DNA of 51,802 nucleotides from Escherichia phage vB_EcoS_NBD2. Both the position numbers and the translations under genes were made by a program. Shown piece after piece: positions 10 to 46,930 of the stretch; the stretch's first letter is position 1; each line of letters starts with the position of its first letter. The stretch lies in sequence record NC_031050.1; one strand, given 5' to 3'. The notes beneath the pieces were generated by a model that was not told the DNA's origin, ran no database searches, and saw nothing but the letters and a program-made list of their open reading frames with translations.

Positions 10-38
10 TTGACAACAACCGCGCTACCAGGCACAAT
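10..38 (+). promoter_or_regulatory. sigma70-like promoter TTGACA-17-CACAAT
   Basis: Hexamers at 10-15 and 33-38, upstream of first + strand gene. Confidence 0.45.
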
Positions 39-69
39 GCAGCCATCCACAACCAAAGGAGAAATAACC

Positions 70-576
70 ATGTCAGAGAGAACGTTAGCAAATATCGTGC
101 GCCACATCGCAACCCAGGCGCTCGCCCATGAAGAGCAGGTGTTGGCCGTGTCATTGCCAGCCATCGTGCAAAACCTCGACCCAGACGGCGCGCCGATGCC
201 AGGCACCGAAGAAATGGATGCAGCCGTTGCCGCGCTCAAAAAGAAGATGACAAAATCATACATCACGATCACCATCAACCGCATGAAGGATGTGCAGGCC
301 GTCAATAAATCTGCCGTCGCCCGATTCTTCACGTGTGACGATCGCGGCGTGGCAATGCTGGAAGTCGGATTTAAGGAAGGCAACACGACACGCGAACGGG
401 GCGCAATCCAAACAGACCGCACGCAGTACAAGCGCGGATATCATGACGGGTTAGACAAGGCGATCGCATTCGTGCCAGATTTCGTGGATTACTCCGACGA
501 GGAAACACTCATCGCTCGCCGCCTCCTGGTGGAAATGCGCGCTCACCTGGCGACGCTCAAGGAAGGTGCAGAATGA
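70..576 (+). CDS. hypothetical early protein
   Basis: ORF 10..576 trimmed to ATG at 70 with RBS aaaggag upstream; the ATG at 10 sits inside the -35 hexamer of the upstream promoter. Confidence 0.55.
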   Translation: MSERTLANIVRHIATQALAHEEQVLAVSLPAIVQNLDPDGAPMPGTEEMDAAVAALKKKMTKSYITITINRMKDVQAVNKSAVARFFTCDDRGVAMLEVGFKEGNTTRERGAIQTDRTQYKRGYHDGLDKAIAFVPDFVDYSDEETLIARRLLVEMRAHLATLKEGAE

Positions 577-779
577 AAAAGCACAGAATCGTTTTAGTCG
601 ATACGGTAACGGCGCTTGGCGATCCGGTCAAGTGGTATGCTGCCCAGGTTCGGGTTGCATTCTTCTGGTGGGTTACGATTCATCACTTTTCACAATTGCG
701 TGATGCGCGTTACTGGTTACACCAGAGCGGGGCAACAAAAAGAATGCTGACGGAAAAAGTGTTAAAGGTAATCGAATAG
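573..779 (+). CDS. hypothetical protein
   Basis: 68-aa ORF, ATGA start/stop overlap with upstream gene. Confidence 0.45.
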   Translation: MKKHRIVLVDTVTALGDPVKWYAAQVRVAFFWWVTIHHFSQLRDARYWLHQSGATKRMLTEKVLKVIE

Positions 780-819
780 CACGAATTGTTAAACGTGCCC
801 GATCTGATTAGGGCATAAT
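777..819 (+). promoter_or_regulatory. motif promoter (TAGCACgaaTTGTTAAAC, 22 nt, CATAAT)
   Basis: Motif 777-794, -10-like 814-819. Confidence 0.55.
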
Positions 820-850
820 GCTTTCACACCAACGAAACGAGGCAACAAAC

Positions 851-1294
851 ATGCAGACTGCAAAACTCTTGGCAATCCTGAAACGCATTGATGACCTGAA
901 CGCACAGATCTTTTCTGGTAGCCTGGAAGGTGACGAACTGACGGCAATCACCAATCACCGCAATCAACTTGCATTGCAGTATATGAACGGTCTGGAAGAG
1001 GTAGAGTTAGTCAAGCCTGGTGAGCGTGTCGTTTCTGGCTTTGCTGCAACCGTCCTGGCAATCCACAAAGAATGCGGAATCCAGTTGCGCTATGCGGCAT
1101 TCATGGCTGATTCATGTGATTACACCATCGTTGGGCGAGGGGCTGAATTCATGGCATGGATTGCCAGCATCAAGGCGAAGTACAAAGAAGCGCATCCAGG
1201 TTGGATGTATGGCGCAGACACGATCGGCAATCAGCACCATTTCACAAGCTATATTGTGTCGGGCGCTTACATGGTCGATAGCACTAATTGCTAA
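851..1294 (+). CDS. hypothetical protein
   Basis: ORF 818..1294, start placed at ATG 851 after RBS aacgagg; preceded by motif promoter 777-819. Confidence 0.55.
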   Translation: MQTAKLLAILKRIDDLNAQIFSGSLEGDELTAITNHRNQLALQYMNGLEEVELVKPGERVVSGFAATVLAIHKECGIQLRYAAFMADSCDYTIVGRGAEFMAWIASIKAKYKEAHPGWMYGADTIGNQHHFTSYIVSGAYMVDSTNC

Positions 1295-1321
1295 AACAAC
1301 AATCAGGGGCTATGCAATAAT
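1279..1321 (+). promoter_or_regulatory. motif promoter (TAGCACtaaTTGCTAAAAC, 22 nt, AATAAT)
   Basis: Motif 1279-1297; -10-like 1316-1321 lies in the loop of hairpin GGGGCTAT/ATAGCCCC. Confidence 0.55.
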
Positions 1322-1350
1322 AGCCCCACACCAAACGAGAAGGAAACACC

Positions 1351-1590
1351 ATGAGCGTCACCATTACGCACACAATGAAAATGCGCGTCGAATCGATGCC
1401 ACTGGAAGCAAGAATCATCGGAGTTTATCAGGGTGATGATCTGGTTGATTTCGTGTTTAAGCCTAATCGCATCGAAGTACACGACGACATAATCACTTTC
1501 CTGGATGCGCACGGCGCACATCGTGGCGAAGGGTTCACGGCGGAGGTGAGCTTTAAGCGCGGAACAATCCTGAAAGTTGAGGTGAAGTGA
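1351..1590 (+). CDS. hypothetical protein
   Basis: 79-aa ORF with RBS gagaagga; preceded by motif promoter. Confidence 0.55.
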   Translation: MSVTITHTMKMRVESMPLEARIIGVYQGDDLVDFVFKPNRIEVHDDIITFLDAHGAHRGEGFTAEVSFKRGTILKVEVK

Positions 1591-1907
1591 TGAAACGATT
1601 TTCACTACTGGCACCAATCGCACTTCTTGCAGCGCTAACCATTGCATTAACCGGATGCGACAACTCAACCCGCGTGCCAGTTGAGCAGCGCGGAAAAGTG
1701 CAGGTTAATACGGCTGAATCAGGCCGCGTGCAGGTTCGCAAGATCAGTGAATTTCGCGACGATCTGGCTTACGATGATTATCGCGGAGTGTACATCATCA
1801 CGGACACCGAAACGGGGCAAGAGTTTATCGGCGTTAGCGGCGTTGGTATCAGTGCGATCGGGCAGCACAATTGCGGTAAAAATTGCTGGCGCAAAGACGA
1901 ACGATAG
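1587..1907 (+). CDS. putative lipoprotein
   Basis: N-terminal signal peptide followed by lipobox-like LTGC; start overlaps stop of upstream gene. Confidence 0.55.
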   Translation: MMKRFSLLAPIALLAALTIALTGCDNSTRVPVEQRGKVQVNTAESGRVQVRKISEFRDDLAYDDYRGVYIITDTETGQEFIGVSGVGISAIGQHNCGKNCWRKDER

Positions 1908-1947
1908 CACGAATTGCTAAAACTCATCATCGGGGCTATGCCATAAT
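1905..1947 (+). promoter_or_regulatory. motif promoter (TAGCACgaaTTGCTAAAAC, 22 nt, CATAAT)
   Basis: Motif 1905-1923, -10-like 1942-1947 within hairpin. Confidence 0.55.
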
Positions 1948-2023
1948 AGCCCCATACACAGCACGGGAGCACAGCGCGATGAATGGCGTCGAGCCTCCCA
2001 CACCAAACGAGAAGGAATAGGAA

Positions 2024-2557
2024 ATGATGTTAGAAATAAAGGCAAGCAAGGTTATCCCTGGGCAGATGATGGCAGTTGTTGGCGAAACCCGAATTGATAT
2101 TCCCGATTGGGTTTATAGCGTGGCGGTAGATGCAGATGGCGAATTGTGGGGCTTCTGCTCAATGGCGGAACCAATGCGCGATGGCGAAGTGTGGAACGAT
2201 CACACCAGCGCCGAACAATCACGCGTTGAGTTGCTGGGAGACTTCAAGGGCGGCGTTGTTGGCTGGGCTGACTCATTGACAGTTATCGATCGCGAGCCGA
2301 AGAAGAAGCCTAAAGCAGATCGCCGCGTGCTTCGTGGTCTGGTTCTGGATAGCATCACGCGCGACGTTGAGGCAGGCGAGTTGGGCGCACGCAATACAGC
2401 GGCAATCATTCGCGATCTGGATGTGGCGACGTTCAACGGCTACACAACGTTAAAGCTTGTGCAGGCATTCGCCCTGGCTGGCTATGATATCCGCAACACT
2501 CACACGATGAAGGCATTCGAAGCCATCGATCGCAAGGTTCAAGAGGCCTGGGCATGA
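2024..2557 (+). CDS. hypothetical protein
   Basis: 177-aa ORF, RBS gaaggaa, preceded by motif promoter. Confidence 0.55.
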   Translation: MMLEIKASKVIPGQMMAVVGETRIDIPDWVYSVAVDADGELWGFCSMAEPMRDGEVWNDHTSAEQSRVELLGDFKGGVVGWADSLTVIDREPKKKPKADRRVLRGLVLDSITRDVEAGELGARNTAAIIRDLDVATFNGYTTLKLVQAFALAGYDIRNTHTMKAFEAIDRKVQEAWA

Positions 2558-2658
2558 GCACGCTCGCACCCATTATCATCACAATCTGCGTGTGCCTCGC
2601 TATCGTCGTGATCTCAAGGCTCATCGTAACGGCTATCCGCATCAAGCGGGATGAATAG
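2554..2658 (+). CDS. small hydrophobic peptide (34 aa)
   Basis: ATG 2554 overlapping upstream stop; translation MSTLAPIIITICVCLAIVVISRLIVTAIRIKRDE is one predicted TM helix; below the ORF-track length cutoff. Confidence 0.35.
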   Translation: MSTLAPIIITICVCLAIVVISRLIVTAIRIKRDE

Positions 2659-2698
2659 CACGAAATGACAAAACGGCTGGCTCACTGATTGGTATACT
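2656..2698 (+). promoter_or_regulatory. motif promoter, degenerate (TAGCACgaaATGACAAAAC, 22 nt, TGgTATACT)
   Basis: Motif 2656-2674, extended -10 2690-2698. Confidence 0.5.
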
Positions 2699-2729
2699 TC
2701 TTTCCATACCAACACAGGAGCCAGTTACC

Positions 2730-2915
2730 ATGCAATACAAAACGATTTACACCCACTGCGGCAAGGCCTTTACAGCTAACGCTGACTCAATCGAATATCT
2801 GCCCTGGTTCGGCGTATGGAAGATGTGGAAAATCACATCAAGCGGATATGAAGAGTACTACCTCCGCAAGATGTATGTTGCCGAAGTCATTGAGCATGAC
2901 GAATTTTTCAACTAA
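2730..2915 (+). CDS. hypothetical protein
   Basis: 61-aa ORF, RBS aggag, preceded by motif promoter. Confidence 0.5.
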   Translation: MQYKTIYTHCGKAFTANADSIEYLPWFGVWKMWKITSSGYEEYYLRKMYVAEVIEHDEFFN

Positions 2916-2955
2916 TCACCAATCAGGGGCGCAAGCCCCTTTCAAGGAATAATCC

Positions 2956-3333
2956 ATGAAACGCATTAAAGTTAAATGCCTGGCAGTTGACCGTTACATT
3001 TCCGAGTTTTACACCCCTGGCAAGTGGTACACCCTGGAAGTTATTGAAAAGCTGGATATTGCCCAGCAGACCCGCGAGATTCCAACCGATCGCGATGGTT
3101 GCTCACTTCGTGTTAGCCGTGAGCGCGGCGACAATTACCGCTATCGTGTTGCGGGCTATGAAGGCACGCTGTTTGACTCGAAGCCGTGGCGCTTCCGCAA
3201 GAAGAATCATTTTTGCGTTGATATCGACTACAGCAAATGCGCTCGCTCAATCCGTCGCCAGGCTCGCAACGTAGCCAAAGAGCTTTATTCGTGCGGCAAT
3301 CTGGAGAAGATCGCGCGCAGCTATGGAAAATAG
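2956..3333 (+). CDS. hypothetical protein
   Basis: 125-aa ORF, RBS aagga. Confidence 0.55.
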   Translation: MKRIKVKCLAVDRYISEFYTPGKWYTLEVIEKLDIAQQTREIPTDRDGCSLRVSRERGDNYRYRVAGYEGTLFDSKPWRFRKKNHFCVDIDYSKCARSIRRQARNVAKELYSCGNLEKIARSYGK

Positions 3334-3373
3334 CACTTTTTGTTAAAACGCCGAATCGGGGTTGCGCTATAGT
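3331..3373 (+). promoter_or_regulatory. motif promoter (TAGCACtttTTGTTAAAAC, 22 nt, TATAGT)
   Basis: Motif 3331-3349, -10 3368-3373. Confidence 0.55.
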
Positions 3374-3404
3374 AACCCCATCAACAACGAACGAGGAAAT
3401 GCAA

Positions 3405-3620
3405 ATGCGCCTTTTATGCACATTCAGCCAAACGAAAAATTTCGTTGCTGGCAAGGAGTACGAAAGCGAAGTTGTACGGCGTTGCGGGATGGATTTCAAC
3501 GAGGTTAAGGGTGAAAGCGGCTTTCCCGTATGCCTTCAGCCTGGCGATAGCGCCCGCGATGTATCAGCTTTTTCCGGTCACAAACTGTTAGCGGACTTTC
3601 AACCAGTAGAGGATCAGTAA
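3405..3620 (+). CDS. hypothetical protein
   Basis: ORF 3237..3620 trimmed to ATG 3405 downstream of RBS gagga and motif promoter 3331-3373. Confidence 0.45.
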   Translation: MRLLCTFSQTKNFVAGKEYESEVVRRCGMDFNEVKGESGFPVCLQPGDSARDVSAFSGHKLLADFQPVEDQ

Positions 3621-3622
3621 TA

Positions 3623-3901
3623 ATGGAACGTTTTATCAAGATCAAATCGGATGGCGGTTATCACCTGGCGGCTGGCATGGAGGGCTGCATTGTTCGCCTG
3701 AAAGATATGCTGGGAGGCTTGGCGGTTGTTCATGCTCCAACGCTGGGGCTTTACTGCAAGCCTGAAAATAGTTTCCTTGCGAAACCTTTGGGCGTAACTG
3801 GCGAGCCTAATGATTACTTTTTCGGCACGGAAATGTATGAAGAGGTTGAAAACCCGTTCGCGCACTGGAATAAGATTAAGGGGGCACCTTGCGCAAGCTA
3901 A
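3623..3901 (+). CDS. hypothetical protein
   Basis: 92-aa ORF immediately after previous stop. Confidence 0.5.
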   Translation: MERFIKIKSDGGYHLAAGMEGCIVRLKDMLGGLAVVHAPTLGLYCKPENSFLAKPLGVTGEPNDYFFGTEMYEEVENPFAHWNKIKGAPCAS

Positions 3902-4131
3902 CCCGCGATGAAGAGCGTTTTAAATCGTGTCTCAAGAAGAGCAAGAGCAAAACCATTCACCTTTCAACGAATGGATCTCAACTCTTCTGGTACTTCAAGG
4001 ATGTTGATCAGACGGGCTGGCATCCTGAAACCATCACGGATCTGATCCGCGATGACCTTATTCAAATCAGGCTCATGGTTGGCGGCGGCGCTGGTGTCGC
4101 ATACTACCAGGGCATAACTTGGAGTAAGTGA
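3889..4131 (+). CDS. hypothetical protein (possible TTG start)
   Basis: ORF begins at TTG 3889 with strong RBS aaggggg 6 nt upstream; no in-frame ATG near the start. Confidence 0.35.
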   Translation: MRKLTRDEERFKSCLKKSKSKTIHLSTNGSQLFWYFKDVDQTGWHPETITDLIRDDLIQIRLMVGGGAGVAYYQGITWSK

Positions 4132-4132
4132 A

Positions 4133-4339
4133 ATGCAGATCTACACATCGCCAGGCGGCGCGCAATATCTTGTTTTTCGCGGGCTGGTATATTTCAAGCC
4201 AGTAGACGGCGGCGAGGTTAGAATGTCAGATATGGGGGTTGGTCGATTCCTTGACCTGATCGCCAAAGGATTCATGACATACAGCCGCACCGTCAACCCA
4301 GCATTAGCGTATAGGCCGGAGCACTGGAAACAGCACTAA
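4133..4339 (+). CDS. hypothetical protein
   Basis: 68-aa ORF directly after upstream stop. Confidence 0.45.
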   Translation: MQIYTSPGGAQYLVFRGLVYFKPVDGGEVRMSDMGVGRFLDLIAKGFMTYSRTVNPALAYRPEHWKQH

Positions 4340-4373
4340 TTGCTAAAACTTGCCCAGGGGCATTTGATAGAAT
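4331..4373 (+). promoter_or_regulatory. motif promoter (CAGCACtaaTTGCTAAAAC, 22 nt, TAGAAT)
   Basis: Motif 4331-4349, -10 4368-4373. Confidence 0.5.
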
Positions 4374-4413
4374 GCCTCTCATCAAGTTAACGCAACCAAC
4401 AAACGAGGCAGTT

Positions 4414-5004
4414 ATGACTATTCAACGATACACAATGCGAAGTGTAAATGGAGAGCCTGAAATGGTGGCTCACGGCGCAGGGGCGTATGTAACCTACGCA
4501 TCACACGCCGAAGAATTGCTCCGCGTACAGGGCGAATTAGACGCCTTAAAAGACGGCTTAAAACGTCAAATTTTCGCGCCACTTGAAAAAGCCATGATGA
4601 ATGCGCTTATTAAAACAGCAATGCAGGCAACGCATACCGTCTACACCGTCAACCCATGCGACAAGCTGACTTCCGAGCGAGTGCGTGAAATTATGGATGC
4701 CCAGATCGGAGCGGGGGTAATCAGCCTGGCGGAAGTTGAAGAGCGCGGTTTCGCAACTGGCGGATTTATGGCAATCCCAATAACACGACCAGATCCAGAA
4801 TCCCTGCTTTGCATCAAATCGGACGCCAAAAGCTTCAAGGCTGGAGAGTCTTACCAGTGCGAGGCCAACAAAGACGGCGCTTTGTTCGTAACGCAAGATG
4901 AATTCGTTTCCGATCTGAATGAAGATGATTACTGGCACGTCACGGACGGCGGCGCGTATTACATCGTCGAAACGATCGCGGGTAATGCCTACTTTAAGAA
5001 GTAG
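4414..5004 (+). CDS. hypothetical protein
   Basis: ORF 4372..5004 trimmed to ATG 4414 after RBS aacgagg; preceded by motif promoter. Confidence 0.55.
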   Translation: MTIQRYTMRSVNGEPEMVAHGAGAYVTYASHAEELLRVQGELDALKDGLKRQIFAPLEKAMMNALIKTAMQATHTVYTVNPCDKLTSERVREIMDAQIGAGVISLAEVEERGFATGGFMAIPITRPDPESLLCIKSDAKSFKAGESYQCEANKDGALFVTQDEFVSDLNEDDYWHVTDGGAYYIVETIAGNAYFKK

Positions 5005-5044
5005 CACTTTTTGTTAAACGGGCACGTGTGCTGACTGGTATCAT
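5002..5044 (+). promoter_or_regulatory. motif promoter (TAGCACtttTTGTTAAAC, 22 nt, TGgTATCAT)
   Basis: Motif 5002-5019, extended -10 5036-5044. Confidence 0.55.
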
Positions 5045-5075
5045 GTGCCCACACCAACCAAATGGAGAGGCACCA

Positions 5076-5705
5076 ATGAATGCACTTTACAGCCATATCA
5101 AGCGCCACATTGAGCAGCGCCCGAACAAGCCAGTTTTCATCTTTGACTTTGACGGCACCTTGTCTGACGGATCGCACCGCCTGGACAGACTGCCAACCGA
5201 AAACCTTCACCTTACTGAATCATGGCAGGAGTTTAACGAGCTTTCGGCATTTGATGCGCCGTTTGAGGACACCATTCAGGTGATGAAGGCTTGTTATCAA
5301 TTCGGCACCGTCATTATTTTGACAGGCCGCAGCGATTCGGTGCTTAATCTTTCCGTTCAATGGTTGCTTGACAATGACGCTGATTATTATGATTTCCTGG
5401 TGATGCGCGAGGCAACCGATAACCGAAAAGACACGATCATCAAAGAAGAGTTTTTGCGCTTCATTGGACTTCATCGCATTACCGCCGCCTGGGATGATAG
5501 CCCGAAAGTTATCGAGCATTTCCGAGGCCTGGGCATCACAACTTATCAGGTTTGCGACTACGGCGACAACGTTCACGCTGGCTTGAAGTCTCACGGAGTA
5601 AGCGAGCTTAAGGCGGAGTGCGATCACATCTGGGAGCGTCACAGCACTGGTGACGATTATTATGATTGCTGCGTCAGTTGCGGCAAATCGAAGGGGATTA
5701 AATAA
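5076..5705 (+). CDS. HAD-superfamily phosphatase (nucleotidase or polynucleotide 3-prime-phosphatase-like)
   Basis: HAD motif I FIFDFDGTL near N-terminus; ORF 5028..5705 trimmed to ATG 5076 after RBS ggagagg. Confidence 0.6.
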   Translation: MNALYSHIKRHIEQRPNKPVFIFDFDGTLSDGSHRLDRLPTENLHLTESWQEFNELSAFDAPFEDTIQVMKACYQFGTVIILTGRSDSVLNLSVQWLLDNDADYYDFLVMREATDNRKDTIIKEEFLRFIGLHRITAAWDDSPKVIEHFRGLGITTYQVCDYGDNVHAGLKSHGVSELKAECDHIWERHSTGDDYYDCCVSCGKSKGIK

Positions 5706-5707
5706 CA

Positions 5708-6325
5708 ATGGCAACCATCATCATTTTGAACGCGCCACCGCGCGCGGGTAAAGACACGATCGCGAGCATTATCAATGAGCAATACGGCTTGCAGGTTGTG
5801 AGCTTTAAAACGCAGATGTTCAACATCGCTCGCGCCATCCTGGGCGGCGCTGATTTCGAAAACCCATTCATGCGGGTTTACAATACCGACGAGAAAGACA
5901 CGCGCAAGCTTGATTGCCTGGGAGGGATGACTTGCCGCGAGTTCATGATCTGGATTAGCGAAACCATCGTGAAACCGAAGTTCGGGAAAAAGCATTTCGG
6001 CTGGCTTATGGCTGACCTTCTCACCGAAATGGAAGCAGATCAGGATCTGACGATTTGCAGCGATGGCGGATTCCCTGACGAAGTGGAGGCGCTTATTGAT
6101 TGCGGTCACAAAGTCAAGCTGGTACGTATGCACCGTGAAGGCTTCGACTTCGGCAATGATAGCCGCGATTACATTAATCTTTCGCCGGAGTATCTCGCGA
6201 AGCCTGGCGTTGAGGTTATGGATCTTAAGTTGCAGCACGGCTCGCCGCAAGATGCAGCCGATACGATCGCCGCAATGTTCGTGCGCCCTCATCATGTCGA
6301 TTGGTCTGATGATATTCCCTGGTAA
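5708..6325 (+). CDS. deoxynucleoside monophosphate kinase-like P-loop kinase
   Basis: N-terminal P-loop NAPPRAGKDT resembling the T4 gene 1 dNMP kinase P-loop (SGKDT); 2 nt after the phosphatase stop. Confidence 0.55.
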   Translation: MATIIILNAPPRAGKDTIASIINEQYGLQVVSFKTQMFNIARAILGGADFENPFMRVYNTDEKDTRKLDCLGGMTCREFMIWISETIVKPKFGKKHFGWLMADLLTEMEADQDLTICSDGGFPDEVEALIDCGHKVKLVRMHREGFDFGNDSRDYINLSPEYLAKPGVEVMDLKLQHGSPQDAADTIAAMFVRPHHVDWSDDIPW

Positions 6326-6326
6326 A

Positions 6327-6369
6327 TAGCACTTTTTGTTAAACCCTCTTCGGAGGGTTTTGTTATAGT
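6327..6369 (+). promoter_or_regulatory. motif promoter overlapping a terminator hairpin (22 nt, TATAGT)
   Basis: Motif 6327-6344, hairpin CCCTC-ttcg-GAGGG 6344-6357, -10 6364-6369. Confidence 0.55.
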
Positions 6370-6400
6370 TACTCCATCGAAACGAAACGGAGCGACGGAA

Positions 6401-6625
6401 ATGATTAAGTCAATCAAAGTTAAGTGCATCAAGTCAACTGGCGGCGCATTCATGAAAGGCCAGATCTACAACGCAAGCATGAGTGATGGGGATTGGTGCG
6501 TTAAAGGGGTTGATGATTACAGCTACACAACGTTACGCGGAATGTGGGGAACTATCTACTATTGCAGCCTTGACCGCAAAGTAAGATTCACCTTTGAACC
6601 AGTAGAAAAAGAGGATTTAGAATAA
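6401..6625 (+). CDS. hypothetical protein
   Basis: 74-aa ORF, RBS ggagcgacggaa, preceded by motif promoter. Confidence 0.5.
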   Translation: MIKSIKVKCIKSTGGAFMKGQIYNASMSDGDWCVKGVDDYSYTTLRGMWGTIYYCSLDRKVRFTFEPVEKEDLE

Positions 6626-6915
6626 TGTCTATGAACGCAATCGCAAATATCACCGTTGACCTGAAAGCAAAGATTCAGTACACGATCCCAGAATCCGGCA
6701 CTTTCCTTTTCGCATGGGCTTACCGCGATCAGCCGTTCGCCGCTACTTATCAATGGCGCTCTGGTGAGCTTGCCGTGATGACGGATTCAGGTTACGAGAT
6801 CGCAGGAGTTGGCGCAGCGGAAGAGTATTACCCGCTTCCAGATCTCAATCGCATCGTTGCTGGCGAAGATACCGCATCAAAATTCATCGCTATCGTGGTG
6901 ATCGATGCAGCATGA
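6625..6915 (+). CDS. hypothetical protein
   Basis: 96-aa ORF, start overlapping upstream stop. Confidence 0.5.
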   Translation: MSMNAIANITVDLKAKIQYTIPESGTFLFAWAYRDQPFAATYQWRSGELAVMTDSGYEIAGVGAAEEYYPLPDLNRIVAGEDTASKFIAIVVIDAA

Positions 6916-7183
6916 AAAGGCCAACATTTCACGAAGCAATGATTATTGCTTTACTTATGCTTACGAGCGCGGCGGCATTACGCGCAATCTTATTCTTCGC
7001 ATTCATACAGGGCGCAAAATGAAAACTTTCCTGATCTTCATGGCTGGCTCAATCATGCTGACAGCAACAACCGAAGGCGTAACGCCGTTAATCGCAGGCG
7101 GCCTTATCGCCTGGGCTTATTACCGCTGCGGGCACGATGACGGATTCAAGGCCGGAAAGCGAAACATCTTAACTGGCAAATAG
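6905..7183 (+). CDS. hypothetical protein, possibly membrane
   Basis: 92-aa ORF with hydrophobic C-terminal half; start uncertain (alternative ATG about 7019). Confidence 0.35.
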   Translation: MQHEKANISRSNDYCFTYAYERGGITRNLILRIHTGRKMKTFLIFMAGSIMLTATTEGVTPLIAGGLIAWAYYRCGHDDGFKAGKRNILTGK

Positions 7184-7223
7184 CACGATTTGTTAAAAGG
7201 GCATTCATCCTGATTGGTATAAT
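7181..7223 (+). promoter_or_regulatory. motif promoter (TAGCACgatTTGTTAAAAG, 22 nt, TGgTATAAT)
   Basis: Motif 7181-7199, extended -10 7215-7223. Confidence 0.6.
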
Positions 7224-7253
7224 GCCCACATCAACCACGTAGAGGAATAAATC

Positions 7254-7715
7254 ATGAAACAAGTTGCAATTTGTACTCACTCAATCACCCGCGATTTCGT
7301 TGTTGGCGAATCGTATGAAATCAAGCCAAAAAACGGCGGGCGCGGCTTTTACGTTGGCGGTAACTGGACGGGCTACGCATACGACAGCGAAACCCCCGAT
7401 TTAATCGACGTGCGCGGCGTTAACAGGACGATTGCCAGCTTCAACAAGGGAATCGCACGCAAGAAAAAAAGCCTTCTCAAAATGCTTGTGCGTGCGCATG
7501 TGGTGTATGCAAAATCGCGTGGATGGGGTGATAGCAAAAACGGCGCTCATAAATCCTGGAGCGGCACGCCATACAAGAGCGCGCACGATTGGGCGCGTTG
7601 CTTTGCCCTGGGCTATGACCTAAAAGCGATTGAGCAGGACGCGGAAGCGGAAGGCCAGCCAGTTGATCAGGAGTTCGTAAACTGGTTCGTTGATGAGCAG
7701 ATGAGTTATTATTGA
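7254..7715 (+). CDS. hypothetical protein
   Basis: 153-aa ORF, RBS agaggaa, preceded by motif promoter. Confidence 0.55.
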   Translation: MKQVAICTHSITRDFVVGESYEIKPKNGGRGFYVGGNWTGYAYDSETPDLIDVRGVNRTIASFNKGIARKKKSLLKMLVRAHVVYAKSRGWGDSKNGAHKSWSGTPYKSAHDWARCFALGYDLKAIEQDAEAEGQPVDQEFVNWFVDEQMSYY

Positions 7716-7740
7716 TTGCTGGCGCGAAGTCCTGCATAAT
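7712..7740 (+). promoter_or_regulatory. canonical sigma70-like promoter TTGATT-17-CATAAT (no motif)
   Basis: Hexamers 7712-7717 and 7735-7740. Confidence 0.5.
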
Positions 7741-7786
7741 GCGGGGCTTCATTCAAGCAACCACAAACCAATCAGAGGAAATCACC

Positions 7787-8218
7787 ATGAAATTACGTTG
7801 CCTTTTTGTTTCAACCTCCATGTATTCCGCCGTAGCCGCTCGCCTGTTTGATGTTGGCGCGGAGTATCTGGCAAAGCCTCGCCCTGGTTCGCAGATTGAG
7901 GCGGTCGATATCATCACCAAAAACCCAGCGCGAGAGGGTAACGTTGTGTTAACCGGATTCGTGAACGAGTACACCGGAAACGTTGACATCGTGGCTGGTG
8001 GTGGAATTGTCGCCACTTTCACAAGTCCGAAGGCATCGCGCCTGGCCAAGTCAGAAAAGCGAGTGCCACACAAAGCAGACGGCACGGGGCAAACTGACAA
8101 GCGCCGTTTCCGCCGCGTTTGCCGCCAGTATTGCAAACTTCGCTTCATCAACCCTGCGTTTACGTGCCCAGAGTCACACCGCCAAATGCAAAAGCTGGCG
8201 CAATTCCACCGCCGATAG
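7787..8218 (+). CDS. hypothetical protein
   Basis: ORF 7712..8218 trimmed to ATG 7787 after RBS agaggaa; preceded by canonical sigma70-like promoter. Confidence 0.5.
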   Translation: MKLRCLFVSTSMYSAVAARLFDVGAEYLAKPRPGSQIEAVDIITKNPAREGNVVLTGFVNEYTGNVDIVAGGGIVATFTSPKASRLAKSEKRVPHKADGTGQTDKRRFRRVCRQYCKLRFINPAFTCPESHRQMQKLAQFHRR

Positions 8219-8258
8219 CACGAATTGCTAAAACTCCCCTGGGGTAAGCTGTTATAGT
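8216..8258 (+). promoter_or_regulatory. motif promoter (TAGCACgaaTTGCTAAAAC, 22 nt, TATAGT)
   Basis: Motif 8216-8234, -10 8253-8258. Confidence 0.55.
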
Positions 8259-8289
8259 TACCCCATCAAAACAAACCGGAGCAGCAAAA

Positions 8290-8520
8290 ATGAAAAATAA
8301 CCCACTGGTGATGATTGTCCGCACAACCAACCGCGTAGAGCCTGACGCTCTGACGCTGAAAGAATGCGGTTTCAAGGTTGGCGATGTCGTTGAAATTGAT
8401 GGTTACTACCGCGACGGAACCGCGAGCACTCACGCAATTCGCGAAGGCCTGGGAATCCGCGTTGGCGACAATATCAGCCTTGAGAGTGACGAGTTTGTTA
8501 TTGTGGAGGGTTCCTTATGA
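8290..8520 (+). CDS. hypothetical protein
   Basis: 76-aa ORF, RBS ggagcagcaaaa, preceded by motif promoter. Confidence 0.5.
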   Translation: MKNNPLVMIVRTTNRVEPDALTLKECGFKVGDVVEIDGYYRDGTASTHAIREGLGIRVGDNISLESDEFVIVEGSL

Positions 8521-8822
8521 TCTGGCTTCACACTTACGGAATCGGCAAGTTCGGGCGCAAGATCCGAAAGAGCATTCACACCAGCGAGCAAGAGGCGCTG
8601 GATTCGCAAAAGGTTTTAGGCGGAACCGTCGAGCGATTCCATAGTGATGCAGACGTTGGCATTGAGAAGATGCACATCACCAACGCCATTAACGACGAAC
8701 TAAGCGAAATTATCGACGATTTCAGCAAGATTGATCCGGCGTTTTACGGCTCAAGCGGTTGGGATTGCAAGAAGTTGCGAGCAATTAACATGGTTAGCCA
8801 GATTATCGAAGGGGATTATTGA
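8517..8822 (+). CDS. hypothetical protein
   Basis: 101-aa ORF, ATGA overlap. Confidence 0.5.
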   Translation: MIWLHTYGIGKFGRKIRKSIHTSEQEALDSQKVLGGTVERFHSDADVGIEKMHITNAINDELSEIIDDFSKIDPAFYGSSGWDCKKLRAINMVSQIIEGDY

Positions 8823-9056
8823 ATGTTCGGACTTAGTGAAGCGCACTGGAACATTGTGAAAAGCCAGGCTCGAAAGCTGAATGAAGCGGTTAAGGCAATG
8901 CCTGAGAAAGACCGCAAAAATGATCGCCTAATGATTGAGGTGATCAGCAAGCACCACGAGCCGATCGCAACACTGATCGAGCGTTTAAAGTTCACCTGGA
9001 CGGCTGGCTACCTTGCTGGGCGAGTTGGAAACAAAACAAATGGAGATTATGAGTAA
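8823..9056 (+). CDS. hypothetical protein
   Basis: 77-aa ORF contiguous with upstream gene. Confidence 0.45.
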   Translation: MFGLSEAHWNIVKSQARKLNEAVKAMPEKDRKNDRLMIEVISKHHEPIATLIERLKFTWTAGYLAGRVGNKTNGDYE

Positions 9057-9262
9057 TGTTCACTCACTTACCGAAGAAGGGCGAAATCATCCGTTGTGAT
9101 TCAGTTGTTGGGGCAGCGCCGTTTATGGTTGGCGTGCAGTACACCGTTGAGCACATCGATCGCAAGTTAGGGCACGTTTACGTATACGGCGACGAGGGTA
9201 ACTTAGAAGCGATCGATTACCCTCATGACGCGTTACACGGAAAGTTTTCAAAAGTTAGTTGA
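9056..9262 (+). CDS. hypothetical protein
   Basis: 68-aa ORF, start overlapping upstream stop. Confidence 0.45.
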   Translation: MFTHLPKKGEIIRCDSVVGAAPFMVGVQYTVEHIDRKLGHVYVYGDEGNLEAIDYPHDALHGKFSKVS

Positions 9263-9358
9263 CGGCATCGGCTCTGATTGGTACATTAGAACCGTAGACG
9301 AAAGAGGCGCTTAGTCGCAACGGGCAGCACGATTGCTGCACTACAATTTACAGCGTCA

Positions 9359-9386
9359 TTGATGGCGCTTTCATTCGGGGCATAGT
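9359..9386 (+). promoter_or_regulatory. candidate promoter for tRNA (TTGATG-16-CATAGT)
   Basis: Hexamers 9359-9364 and 9381-9386, about 38 nt upstream of tRNA 5-prime end. Confidence 0.3.
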
Positions 9387-9423
9387 GGTAAGCCCGCCGT
9401 AGACCCGTAAGCGGCACAAATTC

Positions 9424-9511: not shown

Positions 9512-9524
9512 ATCAGAGGGTTAC

Positions 9525-9937: not shown

Positions 9938-9945
9938 TAAACTAA

Positions 9946-9967
9946 CCCGCTTCGGCGGGTTTTTTTA
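9946..9967 (+). terminator. intrinsic terminator (CCCGC-ttcg-GCGGG plus T7)
   Basis: GC stem with UUCG-type tetraloop and T-run 9960-9967 after the early region. Confidence 0.7.
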
Positions 9968-9969
9968 CG

Positions 9970-29732: not shown

Positions 29733-29763
29733 TGGTACTTCCTCGTTTCGTTAAGTTGAAATG

Positions 29764-29806
29764 AGTATAGCCCCATTTGCGGGGCTTGTTTTAGCAATTC
29801 GTGCGG
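29764..29806 (-). promoter_or_regulatory. motif promoter on - strand (CCGCACgaaTTGCTAAAAC, 22 nt, TATACT)
   Basis: Reverse complement of 29788-29806 is the motif; -10 is reverse complement of 29764-29769. Confidence 0.45.
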
Positions 29807-31276: not shown

Positions 31277-32335
31277 ATGACACCTACCAAACCGCAAGCG
31301 GATTTTTTCTGGTTCACAAACGATGAAATGCCGAACGACTTTTATCACGATAAAGAAGCCTGGACGTTCGACTATGTTTCCGGTTCAAGCCTGGGTAAAA
31401 TTCACTCATCATGCCTGGCAAAGTGGCGCTTCGAAGAGAATGAGCCAACGGCGGCGCTGGAGTTCGGCACACAGGCGCACACCAACTTTGAAAGCAACGA
31501 GCTATTCGCATCAACCTACCGACGCGCCCCGTTCGTTGAAGATTTCAAGGATGCTATCACTTCGCAAGCAGCATTCGCGGCTAAATTGAAAAGCTTCGGC
31601 CTGACAGGTACAAGCGGGAAGCAATATCCAGAGCTTTGCAAAATATACGCTGATTGCGGTGAAGATCTTAACGTAATGTGGATTGAAGATCTGATCGCGC
31701 AATCAAAGGCGGCGCACGATGGCGTTGAGTTGGTAAAGGCCGAAGATTATGATGCCTGTGTTTCAATGCGTAAGGTGCTGGAGTCTATACCGGAATACGC
31801 ACAACTCATGAACGATCCGGCAGCGATGCACGAGCTTTCATTGTTCGGCAAAATAAACGGCGTGAACGTCAAAGTTCGCCTGGATTACTGCGCAACAATC
31901 AGCGATCCTGAAATGATTAAGTTGCTGGGCTATAACCCAGAGATTAACCCAGAGATTGTGCTGATTCTTGACTATAAGACAACGACCAGCGCCAACCCTC
32001 ACGAGTTCGATCGAAAGGCGTTTGATCTGGGCTATTACTTGAAGATGGCTTTGCAGCGTGATTTGTTTGTCAATGTGTTTGAAGAAACGCGCCCCGTCGC
32101 AGTTGTCCTACTAACCCAGGAAAAGAAAGCGCCATTCTTGCCTCTGGCTCGACCAATGACGAAAGAGCAGATCATTCACGGGCGCAAGCAGTACATGAGC
32201 GTTATTCACCAGTACGAGATCAGCAGCCGTGATGATGTTTGGCCTTCTTACGCAAACGGCGCGCCATTCGTTCACCTGCAAACGCCGGATTACATCAAGC
32301 GCCAACATCCTGATATTTACGGCGAAAACAAATAG
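31277..32335 (+). CDS. PD-(D/E)xK-family recombination exonuclease
   Basis: Motifs VRLDY and ILDYKTT consistent with PD-(D/E)xK nuclease core; ORF 31217..32335 trimmed to ATG 31277 (RBS gaggat); precedes Erf-like and SSB genes. Confidence 0.5.
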   Translation: MTPTKPQADFFWFTNDEMPNDFYHDKEAWTFDYVSGSSLGKIHSSCLAKWRFEENEPTAALEFGTQAHTNFESNELFASTYRRAPFVEDFKDAITSQAAFAAKLKSFGLTGTSGKQYPELCKIYADCGEDLNVMWIEDLIAQSKAAHDGVELVKAEDYDACVSMRKVLESIPEYAQLMNDPAAMHELSLFGKINGVNVKVRLDYCATISDPEMIKLLGYNPEINPEIVLILDYKTTTSANPHEFDRKAFDLGYYLKMALQRDLFVNVFEETRPVAVVLLTQEKKAPFLPLARPMTKEQIIHGRKQYMSVIHQYEISSRDDVWPSYANGAPFVHLQTPDYIKRQHPDIYGENK

Positions 32336-32403
32336 CACTAAAAGCTAAACAAAAAGAGGCTCATACGGTATAATGAGCCTCAATCAAACAAACAAAGAAG
32401 GTA

Positions 32404-36963: not shown

Positions 36964-37017
36964 TGCTTTTGCTCCGGCAATAAAAAAGGTTGCACCGATT
37001 ATGGCACAACCTCTGGC

Positions 37018-37494
37018 TTATTCTTTAGCTTTTAGTGCTGCCTCACGCTCGCGCTTAATCCGTTTCCATGATGGTTGTTCCGGCTTGTGGGCTAACTCAT
37101 CCTCACGAACCACACGCATCATTTCACGCTTTTTGCATCGCACTGTTAATGGCTTGCCGTTGCCGTCGAAGGTGAGATCTGGTCGGCACCATGTAGCGCG
37201 AAAGCCCTTAGCCCCATTTCGCTTATATGCGTTGTGCGCCTTCTGCGCCCCGCGCGCGGAAATCATGCCGTTTTTAATCCAGATGGTGAGCAGTGAGTTT
37301 GAGATCTTCAACTCACGGCAAACGTTGGCCTTCGAGCCGTAAAACTCGATAAGCATTTCAAGGCGGGCACGCAATCCGGCCTTTACTTCATCTTTCAGAA
37401 CGTAGTAGCCTGTAGGCCGCTTGCGCTTCTTCTTGTCTGCGCCGCGCTGCGTTCCGTTGTTCCCGTTAATGGCTCGCTTGTCAACTTCAATCAT
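37018..37494 (-). CDS. HTH DNA-binding protein, putative transcriptional regulator
   Basis: Predicted helix-turn-helix around ANVCRELKISNSLLTIWIKNG; basic N- and C-termini. Confidence 0.45.
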   Translation of the reverse strand: MIEVDKRAINGNNGTQRGADKKKRKRPTGYYVLKDEVKAGLRARLEMLIEFYGSKANVCRELKISNSLLTIWIKNGMISARGAQKAHNAYKRNGAKGFRATWCRPDLTFDGNGKPLTVRCKKREMMRVVREDELAHKPEQPSWKRIKREREAALKAKE

Positions 37495-39661: not shown

Positions 39662-40077
39662 TCACCGATAAAGGCGAATATCTTGAGTATTACCAGGCTA
39701 ACCCGCTGGACACGTGGAAAGAGGACAAACACCAGGTTGATTGCGTGGCATGGCTGCGCTATCACTACCCGAACCTTTTATTCTGGCACACAGTCAACGA
39801 AGGGAAAAAGCATATCAATTCCGCCCTTCGTGATGAGCAGGCGGGGCTAAAAAAGGGCGTGAGCGACTTCGTAATCCTGATTGGTCATCACGATCGCAAG
39901 TACGCATTTGCAGCGATTGAGTTGAAGAGAACCAACAAGAGCGGCAAGGCCAAAGCCTCACCAGTTAGCAAAGAGCAGAAAGCTTTCTTGCTTGACGTTC
40001 GCGAGCGCGGAGGATTCGCGGCGGTTGCATACGGTCTGGATCAGTTTAAATTAGCGATCGAAGATATGTTGAAATAG
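39658..40077 (+). CDS. VRR-NUC domain nuclease
   Basis: 139 aa with D...E.K arrangement (DFVILIG...AIELKR) typical of VRR-NUC. Confidence 0.55.
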   Translation: MITDKGEYLEYYQANPLDTWKEDKHQVDCVAWLRYHYPNLLFWHTVNEGKKHINSALRDEQAGLKKGVSDFVILIGHHDRKYAFAAIELKRTNKSGKAKASPVSKEQKAFLLDVRERGGFAAVAYGLDQFKLAIEDMLK

Positions 40078-40117
40078 CACGAATTGCTAAACACGTGCCG
40101 GAGCAATCCGGCATAAT
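40075..40117 (+). promoter_or_regulatory. motif promoter (TAGCACgaaTTGCTAAAC, 22 nt, CATAAT)
   Basis: Motif 40075-40092, hairpin GCCGGA-gcaa-TCCGGC, -10 40112-40117. Confidence 0.55.
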
Positions 40118-40147
40118 CTCCACATCGAAACCAAATGAGATAAGACT

Positions 40148-40877: not shown

Positions 40878-41108
40878 ATGCGAGATCGCAACGTTAGACT
40901 GAATGAGATCGGCCTGAAATGTTTATTTGTTGGCCTTGTTTGCGCACAGCTTGAAATGGCTGGATTCACTGGAGATGCCTTCAAGCTGGCAAACTCTCTT
41001 GATATGAGCTTTGAAGAGATAGCGCCGAAGGATATCATTGAATGGGGCGCGCTAATCGCCAAAGACCTTGAAGAGTTCAAGGCTGAAAACCCCGAAGAGT
41101 TCGAATAG
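40878..41108 (+). CDS. hypothetical acidic protein
   Basis: ORF 40839..41108 trimmed to ATG 40878; acidic C-terminus. Confidence 0.4.
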   Translation: MRDRNVRLNEIGLKCLFVGLVCAQLEMAGFTGDAFKLANSLDMSFEEIAPKDIIEWGALIAKDLEEFKAENPEEFE

Positions 41109-41148
41109 CACTAATTGCTAAACATACCCGCCGCCGTGCGGGTATAAT
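41106..41148 (+). promoter_or_regulatory. motif promoter (TAGCACtaaTTGCTAAAC, 22 nt, TATAAT)
   Basis: Motif 41106-41123, -10 41143-41148. Confidence 0.6.
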
Positions 41149-41179
41149 TATTTCTATACCAACCGAACTGGAGCAGAAA

Positions 41180-41989: not shown

Positions 41990-43147
41990 TTGAAAATGCA
42001 ACGCAAAATTTCAGATGAGCAGTTAATCGCAGAGCGAGAATCAGGCAAAACACAGCGCCAGATCGCGGAAGAGTACGGCATGAATCAGCGCACAGTTGAG
42101 CAGCGTTGCGCACGCCTGGCGAAGAAAGGCCACGGGCACGGTAACAGCACTGTTAGCCGCCATGTGCCGGACGGGTTCGCAGTAAAGGGCACGTCAACCA
42201 TGATTCGCGCGAATGGCGAAGAGGTGATCCGATGGGTTAAGACCGATCAGGATCGCGAGAAGTTAGCAGCCATGATGGATGCGGCTATTGATGCGTTTTG
42301 CGAAGAGTTGCCGCGAGCAGCAGCACAGCCAGCCCCACTGGTTCACAACTGGAAAGAAGATCAGCTTGCTCTTTATCCGGTCTTTGACCTGCACATTGGC
42401 GCTATGGCTCATAAGCACGAGTGCGGCGAAAACTACAGCACTGACATTTCAGAAAAGGTGCTGGGAGACTTCTTCAACTACGCCGTAAACGTAGCGCCGG
42501 AAGCGAAAAAAGCAGTTCTGTTAATCGGCGGTGACTTCCTTCACTCTGACGGCCTGGACGCTGTAACACCTGCAAGCGGTCACGTTCTCGATCAGGACTC
42601 ACGCTACGCTAAACTTGTGCATGTTGCGATCCGCTCCACTCGCCGCGCAGTTGCAAAAATGCTGGACAAGCACGCAGAGGTTGAGATCCAGATCATCGAG
42701 GGGAACCATGACCAGGCGGGCATGATTTGGCTTCGTGCTGCAATGGCTGCATTCTATGAAGATGAGCCGCGCGTCACCGTTGACGTTAGCCCAATGATTC
42801 TGCACCGGACGAAGTGGGGCAAAACGCTGTTAGGATACACTCACGGGCACACGATGAAGAAAGCAGAAACGCGCCTTGCGGCGATGGCTACGGACTTCCG
42901 CGAAGAGTTCGGCACCAGCAAATACATTTACACCCACTCTGGGCACTGGCACCACCAGACGATCACAGAGGGCACTTTAGGGATTGATGAAGTGCATGGG
43001 CAGTTAGGCGCAAAAGATGCCTACGCAGCGCGCGGCGGCTGGCGCTCATATCGTCAAGCGGCGGTGATCGTCTACTCAAAAGAGTTTGGCGAAATCGGGC
43101 GTTTCGTGTATCGTCCAGAAATGGCAGGAAATAGCACGAAAAGCTAA
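41990..43147 (+). CDS. HTH domain fused to calcineurin-like metallophosphoesterase
   Basis: N-terminal HTH-like ESGKTQRQIAEEYGMNQRTVEQ; metallophosphatase motifs DLHIG, GGDFLHSDG, EGNHD, HGH, GHWHH in order. Confidence 0.6.
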   Translation: MKMQRKISDEQLIAERESGKTQRQIAEEYGMNQRTVEQRCARLAKKGHGHGNSTVSRHVPDGFAVKGTSTMIRANGEEVIRWVKTDQDREKLAAMMDAAIDAFCEELPRAAAQPAPLVHNWKEDQLALYPVFDLHIGAMAHKHECGENYSTDISEKVLGDFFNYAVNVAPEAKKAVLLIGGDFLHSDGLDAVTPASGHVLDQDSRYAKLVHVAIRSTRRAVAKMLDKHAEVEIQIIEGNHDQAGMIWLRAAMAAFYEDEPRVTVDVSPMILHRTKWGKTLLGYTHGHTMKKAETRLAAMATDFREEFGTSKYIYTHSGHWHHQTITEGTLGIDEVHGQLGAKDAYAARGGWRSYRQAAVIVYSKEFGEIGRFVYRPEMAGNSTKS

Positions 43148-43174
43148 ACAATTGCCGGAGTAATCCGGCATACT
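43132..43174 (+). promoter_or_regulatory. motif promoter, degenerate (TAGCACgaaAAGCTAAAC, 22 nt, CATACT)
   Basis: Motif 43132-43149, -10 43169-43174. Confidence 0.45.
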
Positions 43175-43204
43175 CCAGCTATACCAACCAAAGAGGAAAA
43201 CATT

Positions 43205-46859: not shown

Positions 46860-46879
46860 TAAAAACTCCTTTGTTGGTT

Positions 46880-46930
46880 CCGGCTAATGTACCGGAACCA
46901 TGATACAGACGTTGTGCAAAAAGTGCTATT
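46880..46930 (-). promoter_or_regulatory. motif-containing promoter region for - strand P-loop operon
   Basis: Reverse complement of 46911-46930 is AATAGCACtttTTGCACAAC; TATCAT-like hexamer follows on - strand. Confidence 0.4.

Follow-up and report, generated by a model that had tools for sequence, protein, structure and literature searches.

We describe a recurrent cassette of Escherichia phage vB_EcoS_NBD2 in which, on our reading, a promoter acting as DNA and a stem-loop acting in the RNA of the upstream gene occupy the same nucleotides. The stretch that we analyzed (record NC_031050.1, 51,802 nucleotides (nt); hereafter the window) is approximately a complete T1-like siphophage genome (Drexlerviridae, Vilniusvirus), and it contains 22 cassettes built on the 21-nt repeat aaATAGCACnnnTTGYTAAAA. 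We found that the stem-loops in these cassettes are under selection, that they are built for the sense strand, and that their presence is linked to a gene ending upstream; from this we infer termination or stabilization of the upstream transcript by the stems, next to promoter activity of the cassette itself. As an explanation of the cassettes as a whole, we favor the combination of a promoter (in DNA) with the 3'-end stem-loop of the upstream transcript (in RNA), and assign it a probability of roughly 0.6.

The nearest records to the window are the Klebsiella phages vB_KaeD_HazelMika and vB_KM5a1_KLB19 (hereafter HazelMika and KLB19; Drexlerviridae, Vilniusvirus), whose identity with it is 86-92% in parts of the early region and ~97% in the structural genes. 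Together with 118 viral contig stretches picked by an exact scan for the repeat, T1, TLS and Rtp among them, the window and these two genomes provided a wider set of 329 unique repeat copies. We grouped 299 unique cassettes into 139 sequence clusters, and no hairpin criterion was used in the selection.

The motif AGCACNNNTTGYTAAA has 29 matches with at most two mismatches in the window, compared with 2.65 expected. In one and the same register, a -10-like hexamer follows 21 repeat copies and the variant at 2656; it starts 36 nt after the A of AGCAC and thus 22 base pairs (bp) after TTGYTA, rather than at the 16-18 bp of a canonical promoter. Among the 329 copies, hexamers matching TATAAT at five or more of six positions were found at offset 36 in 209 cases, against 0-13 at every other offset. 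The hexamer is preceded by TG (an extended -10, TGn) in 46% of this set, and a CA conserved 5-6 nt after it is followed by the conserved leader CAtcgaaAc. Given that TTGYTA lies 22 bp and not 17 bp from the hexamer, these are not canonical -35/-10 promoters, and a scan with the canonical sigma-70 consensus (16-18 bp spacing) missed all repeat cassettes as promoters. Judging by sequence, we propose that the cassettes are predicted promoters driven by an extended -10, with the repeat as a putative upstream element or factor-binding site.

The core of the repeat is a near-palindrome, TAGCA-N5-TGYTA, centered near -42 from the predicted start in all cassettes (for example 777-796, 1279-1298 and 8216-8235). 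Combined with the 22-bp gap, this geometry is closer to a class II activator site or a MotA-box-type promoter than to a -35 box. Either base at the Y of TTGYTA, C or T, would preserve a pair (G-C or G.U) in an RNA reading of the repeat. In most cassettes, the predicted start is followed by a conserved A/C-rich leader, CA(t/c)c(g/a)aAacgaaac, located ~12-30 nt past the -10 hexamer and ahead of the ribosome-binding site (for example 826-845 and 6376-6395).

We observed a stable inverted repeat in 17 of the 22 window cassettes. When 21 window promoter spacers (42 nt, from the end of TTGYTA to approximately the predicted start) were compared with dinucleotide shuffles, their mean z-score was -3.1, and 12 of the 21 fell under the genome's 5th percentile for 42-nt windows (Mann-Whitney p = 2e-8). 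For the nine classic cassettes from 778 to 8217, single-strand folding gave z-scores from -1.5 to -6.1. The excess was also present across the 139 clusters (mean z -2.7), with 63% of them below -2 and 48% below -3.

In the wider set, the stems occupy two sharp registers relative to the first hexamer base, with the 3' arm ending either at -1/0 or near +11. In class A, the 3' arm covers ~+4 to +11, which places the hexamer in the loop and 3' arm; these stems stop one base short of the predicted start. In class B, the 3' arm ends at -1/0 and the stem, frequently with a 4-nt loop, lies entirely between repeat and hexamer; in the window, the 3' arms of the five class B stems end on the first 1-3 hexamer bases. 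A rare class C has its stem directly after the repeat, followed by TTTTGT and then the hexamer. The 22 window cassettes divide into 10 of class A, 5 of class B, 1-2 of class C and 5 in which the stem is weak or absent. Pairing is lowest at hexamer positions 2-4. On the simplest reading, all other positions of the ~76-nt intergenic unit are tied to their sequence, so that the stem can only be written where the sequence is free. A hairpin at 2925-2940 that has no promoter, and a repeat-less promoter-like site at 7712-7740 that has a stem-loop, suggest that hairpin and promoter are separable signals that are usually superimposed.

This placement agrees with the claim of the original prediction that many -10 hexamers lie in the loop or 3' arm of an inverted repeat, which is the case in 10 of the 22 window cassettes and in seven of the nine within 1298-8258. 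The four hairpins quoted as examples are all present in the sequence, two of them a few bases away from where they had been placed: GGGGCTAT-gcaata-ATAGCCCC is found at 1306-1327 rather than 1300-1321, and GGGCAT...ATGCCC, assigned to 7203-7229, consists of GGGCATT (7199-7205) and AATGCCC (7221-7227) around TATAAT 7218-7223. The other two are correctly located, namely GCCGGA-gcaa-TCCGGC at 40097-40112 and the terminator-like CCCTC-ttcg-GAGGG (6344-6357), whose T-tract (TTTTGT, 6358-6363) runs into the -10 hexamer TATAGT (6364-6369).

The pairing within the stems identifies the strand on which they are read. Strong stems contained 45 G.T and 6 A.C appositions in cluster representatives, and 110 and 13 over all copies, under a scoring that treats both alike; the G.T/A.C ratio in shuffled sequences was 0.62, and the window alone had 5 and 1. 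The sense fold was more stable than the antisense fold in 88 clusters versus 48 (Wilcoxon p = 2e-5), a difference that is significant with the larger set only (window alone, p = 0.095). Four-base loops (n = 25) belonged to the GNRA or UNCG type in 12 cases on the sense strand and in none on the antisense strand, with about one expected by chance.

We also observed 15 compensatory double substitutions within clusters. In the family of the cassette at 4332 (14 sequences), 97.8% of cells were paired and 6 of the 13 pairs had changed on both sides, and its covariation score of 0.301 exceeded both the shuffled value of 0.109 (0 of 500 shuffles reached the score) and that of slid partners (at most 0.093). 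The HazelMika orthologue of the cassette at 778 has kept the repeat, hexamer and leader, and its TGCCC...GGGCA stem is replaced by GCCGGA-gcaa-TCCGGC in the same register. From these data we conclude that the stems are very probably selected sense-RNA structures of the upstream transcripts. Were the stems instead functionless, arising as a by-product where GC-rich filler separates AT-rich signals or where cassettes are copied from one another, one would expect the shared stems that we see in the paralogous cassettes 1280/1906 and 40076/43133, and it would be no surprise that five cassettes manage without a stem. The z-scores against composition-preserving shuffles, the G.U bias, the tetraloops and the turnover of stems at a kept register all speak against such an origin, and the covariation largely refutes it, leaving it very little chance of being correct.

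The same asymmetry bears on the possibility, raised by the original prediction, that the inverted repeats have a structural role as DNA, either as a cruciform or hairpin tuning promoter opening (as in N4-like or single-strand promoters) or as palindromic operators. Stems that overlap the -10 hexamer and the region just downstream in fixed registers would suit such a role, GC-rich sequence between the -10 and the start affects open-complex stability, and a potential operator, an AT-rich inverted repeat of another kind, surrounds the -10 of the divergent promoter at 37507. Because of the strand asymmetry, neither a symmetric duplex-DNA signal, be it a cruciform or a palindromic operator, nor a hairpin on the template strand fits the data; the excess of G.T over A.C and the restriction of GNRA and UNCG loops to the sense strand are incompatible with either. 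Stems of 5-9 bp with loops of 4-17 nt also form cruciforms poorly, and hairpins are mostly missing where no co-directional upstream gene is transcribed. A cruciform or N4-like promoter was rejected on the asymmetry, and a common palindromic operator was rejected since stem sequences vary among cassettes. The annotations of HazelMika and KLB19 contain neither an RNA polymerase nor a sigma factor, and the TLS study reports the same for TLS (PMC11447400). Taken together, these observations make a DNA-level role very unlikely.

Our results link the stems to the gene that ends upstream of them. Where an open reading frame (ORF) of at least 40 codons ended at the repeat, the mean minimum free energy (MFE) was -11.9 (n = 106); where none did, it was -5.8 (n = 17; p = 5e-5), close to the genome background of -7.0. 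A stricter filter gave mean z-scores of -3.2 with an upstream gene (n = 70) and -1.1 without one (n = 11; p = 0.002). Cassettes with no co-directional gene ending upstream of them mostly lack a hairpin. In 54 of 106 clusters the upstream gene stops at the repeat's own TAG; in most of the others a different stop lies within the repeat, and in 21 further clusters of the 106 the stop is a TAA inside TTGCTAAAA. In the window, the repeat-initial TAG serves as the upstream stop at 777-779, 1905-1907, 3331-3333, 5002-5004, 7181-7183 and 8216-8218, among others.

Since the stems end before the predicted start, only transcripts arriving from upstream would carry them. We also weighed the opposite arrangement, in which transcription starts further upstream with the repeat as promoter core, so that the cassette's own transcript has the stems in its 5' untranslated region, where they stabilize its 5' end. 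The sense-strand RNA signature fits this arrangement equally well, and TTGYTAAAA is similar to a TGn followed by a weak -10; TAAAAC, in turn, lacks the essential final T of a -10. A 5' role does not account for a near-consensus hexamer that keeps a rigid offset and is preceded by TG and followed by CA, nor for stems in two registers rather than at one fixed distance from a start, and it does not predict the absence of stems where there is no upstream gene. We consider it hardly probable.

We propose the following model for a cassette that is a promoter and also encodes the 3'-end stem-loop of the preceding transcript. As DNA, it would be a promoter for the host RNA polymerase, consisting of the repeat, the 22-bp gap, the -10 hexamer often preceded by TGn, CA at the predicted start, the leader and the ribosome-binding site. 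As RNA, the promoter positions not bound to a given sequence (20 bp separating the repeat from the hexamer, and 6 bp from hexamer to start) would spell a GC-rich stem-loop, leaving the AT-rich hexamer in the loop or just 3' of the stem. With its end at or before -1, the stem would be absent from the promoter's own transcript and be transcribed only by polymerases coming from the upstream gene. In such read-through transcripts, it would fold ~20-35 nt past the upstream stop codon, where it may attenuate read-through, block 3'-to-5' exonucleases, or both, giving the upstream message a defined, stable 3' end; the few copies with a U-run (TTTTGT plus hexamer) would act as full intrinsic terminators. 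In addition, the conserved cassettes may be homology islands at which related phages swap genes. An attenuator or 3'-end function of the stems is, in our judgment, probable.

The extent to which these hairpins are predicted to terminate transcription differs between copies. Only 6342-6369, 36985-37014 (-) and a degenerate copy near 47503 (-), a decayed class C element that is perfect in relatives, are terminator-like in combining a stem with a U-tract, so that the claim of the original prediction that some hairpins double as terminators is upheld. For comparison between hairpins we used nT from a d'Aubenton-Carafa-type terminator score, whose formula is poorly calibrated (the positive control scores only 9), so that it serves for ranking only. 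The first two hairpins, with nT of 2.9 and 3.2, approached the 3.9 of the control at 9944-9961, and in 19 of the 21 window cassettes nT did not exceed 1.5. The 8 nt that follow the stem contain a mean of 1.5 T in class A, where the A/C-rich leader follows, and 3.3 T in class B, where the hexamer follows. As most hairpins have no U-tract, they are not canonical intrinsic terminators: a GC-rich hairpin with an immediate U-rich tract is lacking in 19 of 21 window cassettes and in class A generally.

These numbers also bear on the view that every hairpin is a conventional Rho-independent terminator and each cassette a full stop followed by a restart. The two hairpins with stem and T-run would suit it, as would the class B stems, which precede a U/A-rich hexamer and have at least four T in the next 8 nt in 44% of cases; furthermore, one stem-loop of the promoter-early stem-loops (PeSLs) of T4-like phages matched rrnB T1 in termination strength in vivo (PMC2839356). 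It is at odds with the class A stems (48 of 86 strong hairpins) that run into the A/C-rich leader, with the low nT values, and with a terminator consensus scan that detected just one cassette hairpin within 1-10000, and we regard it as unlikely. The proposal that a terminator-promoter arrangement insulates each small early gene holds for a few overlaps of terminator and promoter and is not supported for most stems, which lack the U-tract; the cassettes delimit units of 1-4 genes rather than each small gene. It is more likely that stems without a U-tract bring about partial attenuation of read-through, form a 3' exonuclease barrier, or do both. RNase III sites were rejected because the stems are too short (5-12 bp).

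Several points weigh against the explanation that we favor. Promoter activity, the start site and any termination are predictions, and we found no data in the literature on transcript 5' or 3' ends for any T1-like phage. Canonical rules predict little termination from the many stems without a U-tract, for which 3'-end stabilization is what we propose. In five of the 22 window cassettes the stem is weak or absent, stems are common to paralogous cassettes as noted above, and the 139 clusters are not phylogenetically independent. The comparison by upstream gene rests on the 11-17 cassettes without such a gene and uses a crude ORF criterion. G.T pairs and some of the loops are also tolerated in single-stranded DNA, which leaves some room for a hairpin on the non-template DNA strand. 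Finally, breakpoints at cassettes are in part also expected from the exchange of whole genes.

These breakpoints were seen in comparison with HazelMika and KLB19 over window positions 1-10000, where 16 of 32 homology-block ends fell in cassettes covering 8.7% of the stretch (p = 2e-9, under a null model of sequence coverage rather than gene borders). The gene between the cassettes at 778 and 1280 has no homologue at that place in HazelMika, and both cassettes are conserved there. Cassettes thus flank insertions, deletions and replacements of small genes between relatives, which fits a role as homology islands for gene exchange. In KLB19 (L002), 44395-46579 compared with window 5075-6376 shows an apparent tandem duplication of the polynucleotide kinase / deoxynucleotide kinase segment.

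The elements of the window are listed in the table below.

Table. Promoter cassettes, hairpins and related elements of the window, with position, strand, stem-loop and predicted -10 hexamer.
Position	Strand	Element	Stem-loop	-10 hexamer	Remarks
777..825	+	repeat cassette	796-815 (TGCCC/GGGCA)	CATAAT 814-819	3' arm ends on hexamer base 2
1279..1327	+	repeat cassette	8 bp, 1306-1327 (GGGGCTAT/ATAGCCCC, loop gcaata)	AATAAT 1316-1321	hexamer in loop and 3' arm; z = -5.0
1905..1953	+	repeat cassette	8 bp, 1932-1953	CATAAT 1942-1947	hexamer in loop and 3' arm; z = -6.1
2656..2712	+	variant cassette, repeat TAGCACGAAATGACAAAAC	weak AT-rich stem 2689-2695/2706-2712	TATACT 2693-2698	hexamer at usual offset
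2925..2940	+	intergenic hairpin without promoter	AGGGGC-gcaa-GCCCCT, GNRA loop		z = -3.0
3331..3379	+	repeat cassette	3358-3379 (GGGGTTGC/GTAACCCC, one G.U)	TATAGT 3368-3373	hexamer in loop and 3' arm; ~91% conserved in many T1-like phages
4331..4387	+	repeat cassette	inner hairpin 4356-4379 (one G.U in 9-bp core, two in 10-pair MFE helix); outer helix 4348-4352/4383-4387	TAGAAT 4368-4373	hexamer in loop and 3' arm
5002..5050	+	repeat cassette	5020-5050 (GGGCACGTG/CATGTGCCC)	TATCAT 5039-5044	hexamer in loop and 3' arm; z = -3.3
6327..6375	+	repeat cassette	terminator-like, 6342-6359 (AACCCTC-ttcg-GAGGGTT)	TATAGT 6364-6369	T-tract 6358-6363 runs into hexamer; nT 2.9
7181..7229	+	repeat cassette	7199-7227 (GGGCATT/AATGCCC)	TATAAT 7218-7223	hexamer in loop and 3' arm; z = -2.6
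7712..7750	+	promoter-like site without repeat (TTGATT-17-CATAAT)	11 bp, 7726-7750, two U.G	CATAAT 7735-7740	hexamer spans 5' arm, 3-nt loop and 3' arm; z = -3.5
8216..8265	+	repeat cassette	8240-8265 (TGGGGTAA/TTACCCCA)	TATAGT 8253-8258	hexamer in loop and 3' arm; z = -2.65
9944..9966	+	intrinsic terminator, end of early block	9944-9961 (AACCCGC-ttcg-GCGGGTT), then TTTTT		positive control; nT 3.9
29758..29806	-	repeat cassette	29769-29786 (AGCCCC/GGGGCT)	TATACT 29764-29769	hairpin ends on hexamer base 1
32333..32381	+	repeat cassette (2 mismatches)	9 bp, 32356-32381	TATAAT 32369-32374	hexamer in loop and 3' arm; z = -7.0
36985..37040	-	cassette at end of regulator gene	12 bp, 36985-37014, two G.U	CATAAT 36998-37003	hexamer in loop, then T-run; nT 3.2
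40075..40123	+	cassette	40096-40113 (TGCCGGA-gcaa-TCCGGCA, GNRA loop)	CATAAT 40112-40117	hairpin ends on hexamer base 2
41106..41154	+	cassette	41124-41145 (ATACCCGC/GCGGGTAT)	TATAAT 41143-41148	hairpin ends on hexamer base 3
43132..43180	+	cassette	43153-43170 (TGCCGGA-gtaa-TCCGGCA, GNRA loop)	CATACT 43169-43174	hairpin ends on hexamer base 2
46875..46928	-	repeat cassette (2 mismatches)	9 bp, 46875-46900	TACATT 46886-46891	hexamer in loop
47485..47533	-	cassette	degenerate stem CCAGC-ttcg-GCGGG, then TTTTGT	TATTAT	TTTTGT runs into hexamer; stem perfect in relatives (CCCGC/GCGGG)

Other signals of the window resemble parts of a cassette. Two canonical-looking sigma-70 promoters are without the repeat, at 10-38 (+; TTGACA-17-CACAAT) and 7712-7740 (+; TTGATT-17-CATAAT), and these predicted promoters are possibly immediate-early and independent of a phage factor. 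The repeat copies at 16025-16040 (-), 35958-35973 (+) and 43545-43560 (-) have no -10 hexamer at the usual offset and are located 15-30 nt from canonical-looking terminator hairpins (15972-15993, 36004-36023 and 43510-43529, respectively); the copy at 35958 lies on the strand opposite to its flanking genes. The end of the early block contains a tRNA gene at 9424-9508 (+), annotated as tRNA-Ser in relatives, where it overlaps a small annotated ORF. It was the sole match in an Rfam scan of the window at the gathering score, in which the cassettes matched no family.

A candidate for the factor that reads the repeat is the 158-residue protein encoded at 37018-37494 (-), which is annotated as a transcriptional regulator in relatives and matches phrog_2856 (E = 2e-79). 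A Pfam search with this protein returned no family, and PHROGs names it merely a transcriptional regulator. The divergent helicase promoter next to it, at 37507-37560 (+), has no GC-rich stem, and its -10 is flanked by an AT-rich inverted repeat, ATTCGAT...ATCGAA, with a loop of ~20 nt. At this promoter, loci L003, L040 and L045 of relatives have different but similar half-sites (AACGTTTAC...GTAAACGTT; TTCGTTT...AAACGAA). This inverted repeat may be an operator for the adjacent regulator gene.

The 21-nt repeat was previously reported for TLS, and also for T1, Rtp and Rogue1 (PMC11447400). The repeat given for TLS, aaATAGCACnnnTTGnTAAAA, is the present one, in the same orientation and at the same ~76 nt from the start codon. 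That study treated the repeat alone, suggested that it is a stoperator, an enhancer site or an UP element, found only three sigma-70-like promoters and listed the function of the repeat as an open question. We found no report for T1-like phages of the hairpins or of a fixed hexamer 22 bp downstream of the repeat, and neither is in the TLS paper. Our reading offers a testable view of these intergenic repeats, in which they belong to a promoter cassette whose sequence doubles as the 3'-end hairpin of the transcript from upstream. It also carries a warning for annotators, because in these genomes neither signal is picked up by the standard programs for promoters and terminators.

When compared with known elements, the hairpins resemble Rho-independent terminators in having a GC-rich stem, often with a GNRA or UUCG loop, just after a stop codon, and in two or three copies a U-run; they differ in that most copies have no U-tract and are followed by the A/C-rich leader. 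They resemble repetitive extragenic palindromic (REP) elements and other 3' stabilizer hairpins as stable intercistronic stem-loops without a U-tract, 3' of a coding region, with an action like the one proposed here; they are unrelated to REP elements in sequence and are embedded in promoters. With the hairpin promoters of the N4 virion RNA polymerase they share a short hairpin at a promoter. The N4 element is a template-strand DNA hairpin with a 3-nt loop, used by a phage RNA polymerase, whereas the present loops are 4-17 nt (mostly 4-10) and the G.T pairs are on the sense strand. On these grounds, and with no RNA polymerase annotated in HazelMika or KLB19 or found in TLS, the cassettes do not qualify as N4-type hairpin promoters.

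The closest parallel is with the PeSLs described in the T4-like phages RB49/phi1, PST and nt-1 (Arbiol et al. 2010, PMC2839356; Comeau et al. 2014, PMC4122927). There, a stem-loop in the same position as here terminated transcription and blocked lacZ expression in a lacZ assay (PMC2839356), and the authors noted G-T pairs in the stems and an association with gene shuffling (PMC2839356; PMC4122927). Like PeSLs, our cassettes combine an early-type host promoter (here predicted) with a stable stem-loop that contains G-T pairs, lies mostly between the upstream box and the -10 or over the -10, and ends before the start. Also like PeSLs, each unit begins at the stop codon of the gene upstream and reaches the ribosome-binding site and start codon of the next gene, and the units are enriched among small genes of unknown function and lie at the borders of insertions, deletions and replacements that distinguish close relatives. 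They differ in belonging to an unrelated family (Drexlerviridae siphoviruses) with no sequence homology, in stems that are not polyG/polyC, and in their upstream element: the -35 box of PeSLs is at 17 bp, and here the -10 is fixed and the 21-nt near-palindromic repeat ends in TTGYTA 22 bp away, which is not a canonically spaced sigma-70 promoter.

The layout is therefore best filed as PeSL-like promoter/stem-loop cassettes, here in Drexlerviridae, with hairpins that are in themselves ordinary. A more specific version, which we put forward tentatively and think rather doubtful, is that the stem-loops form 3' ends or insulate units without a U-tract and are paired with an uncharacterized, Drexlerviridae-wide promoter class defined by a TAGCA-N5-TGYTA box near -42, a rigid 22-bp gap and an extended -10, whose geometry resembles that of activator-dependent (class II or MotA-box-like) promoters. 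If this version is true, the whole cassette would answer what the 21-nt repeat of T1-like phages does, and PeSL-type cassettes would have arisen independently in two phage families. Our favored reading extends to an unrelated family the idea developed for T4-like phages, that such compact cassettes regulate small early genes and serve as swap points for them, and it suggests that promoter/stem-loop cassettes are a recurrent solution in lytic phages.

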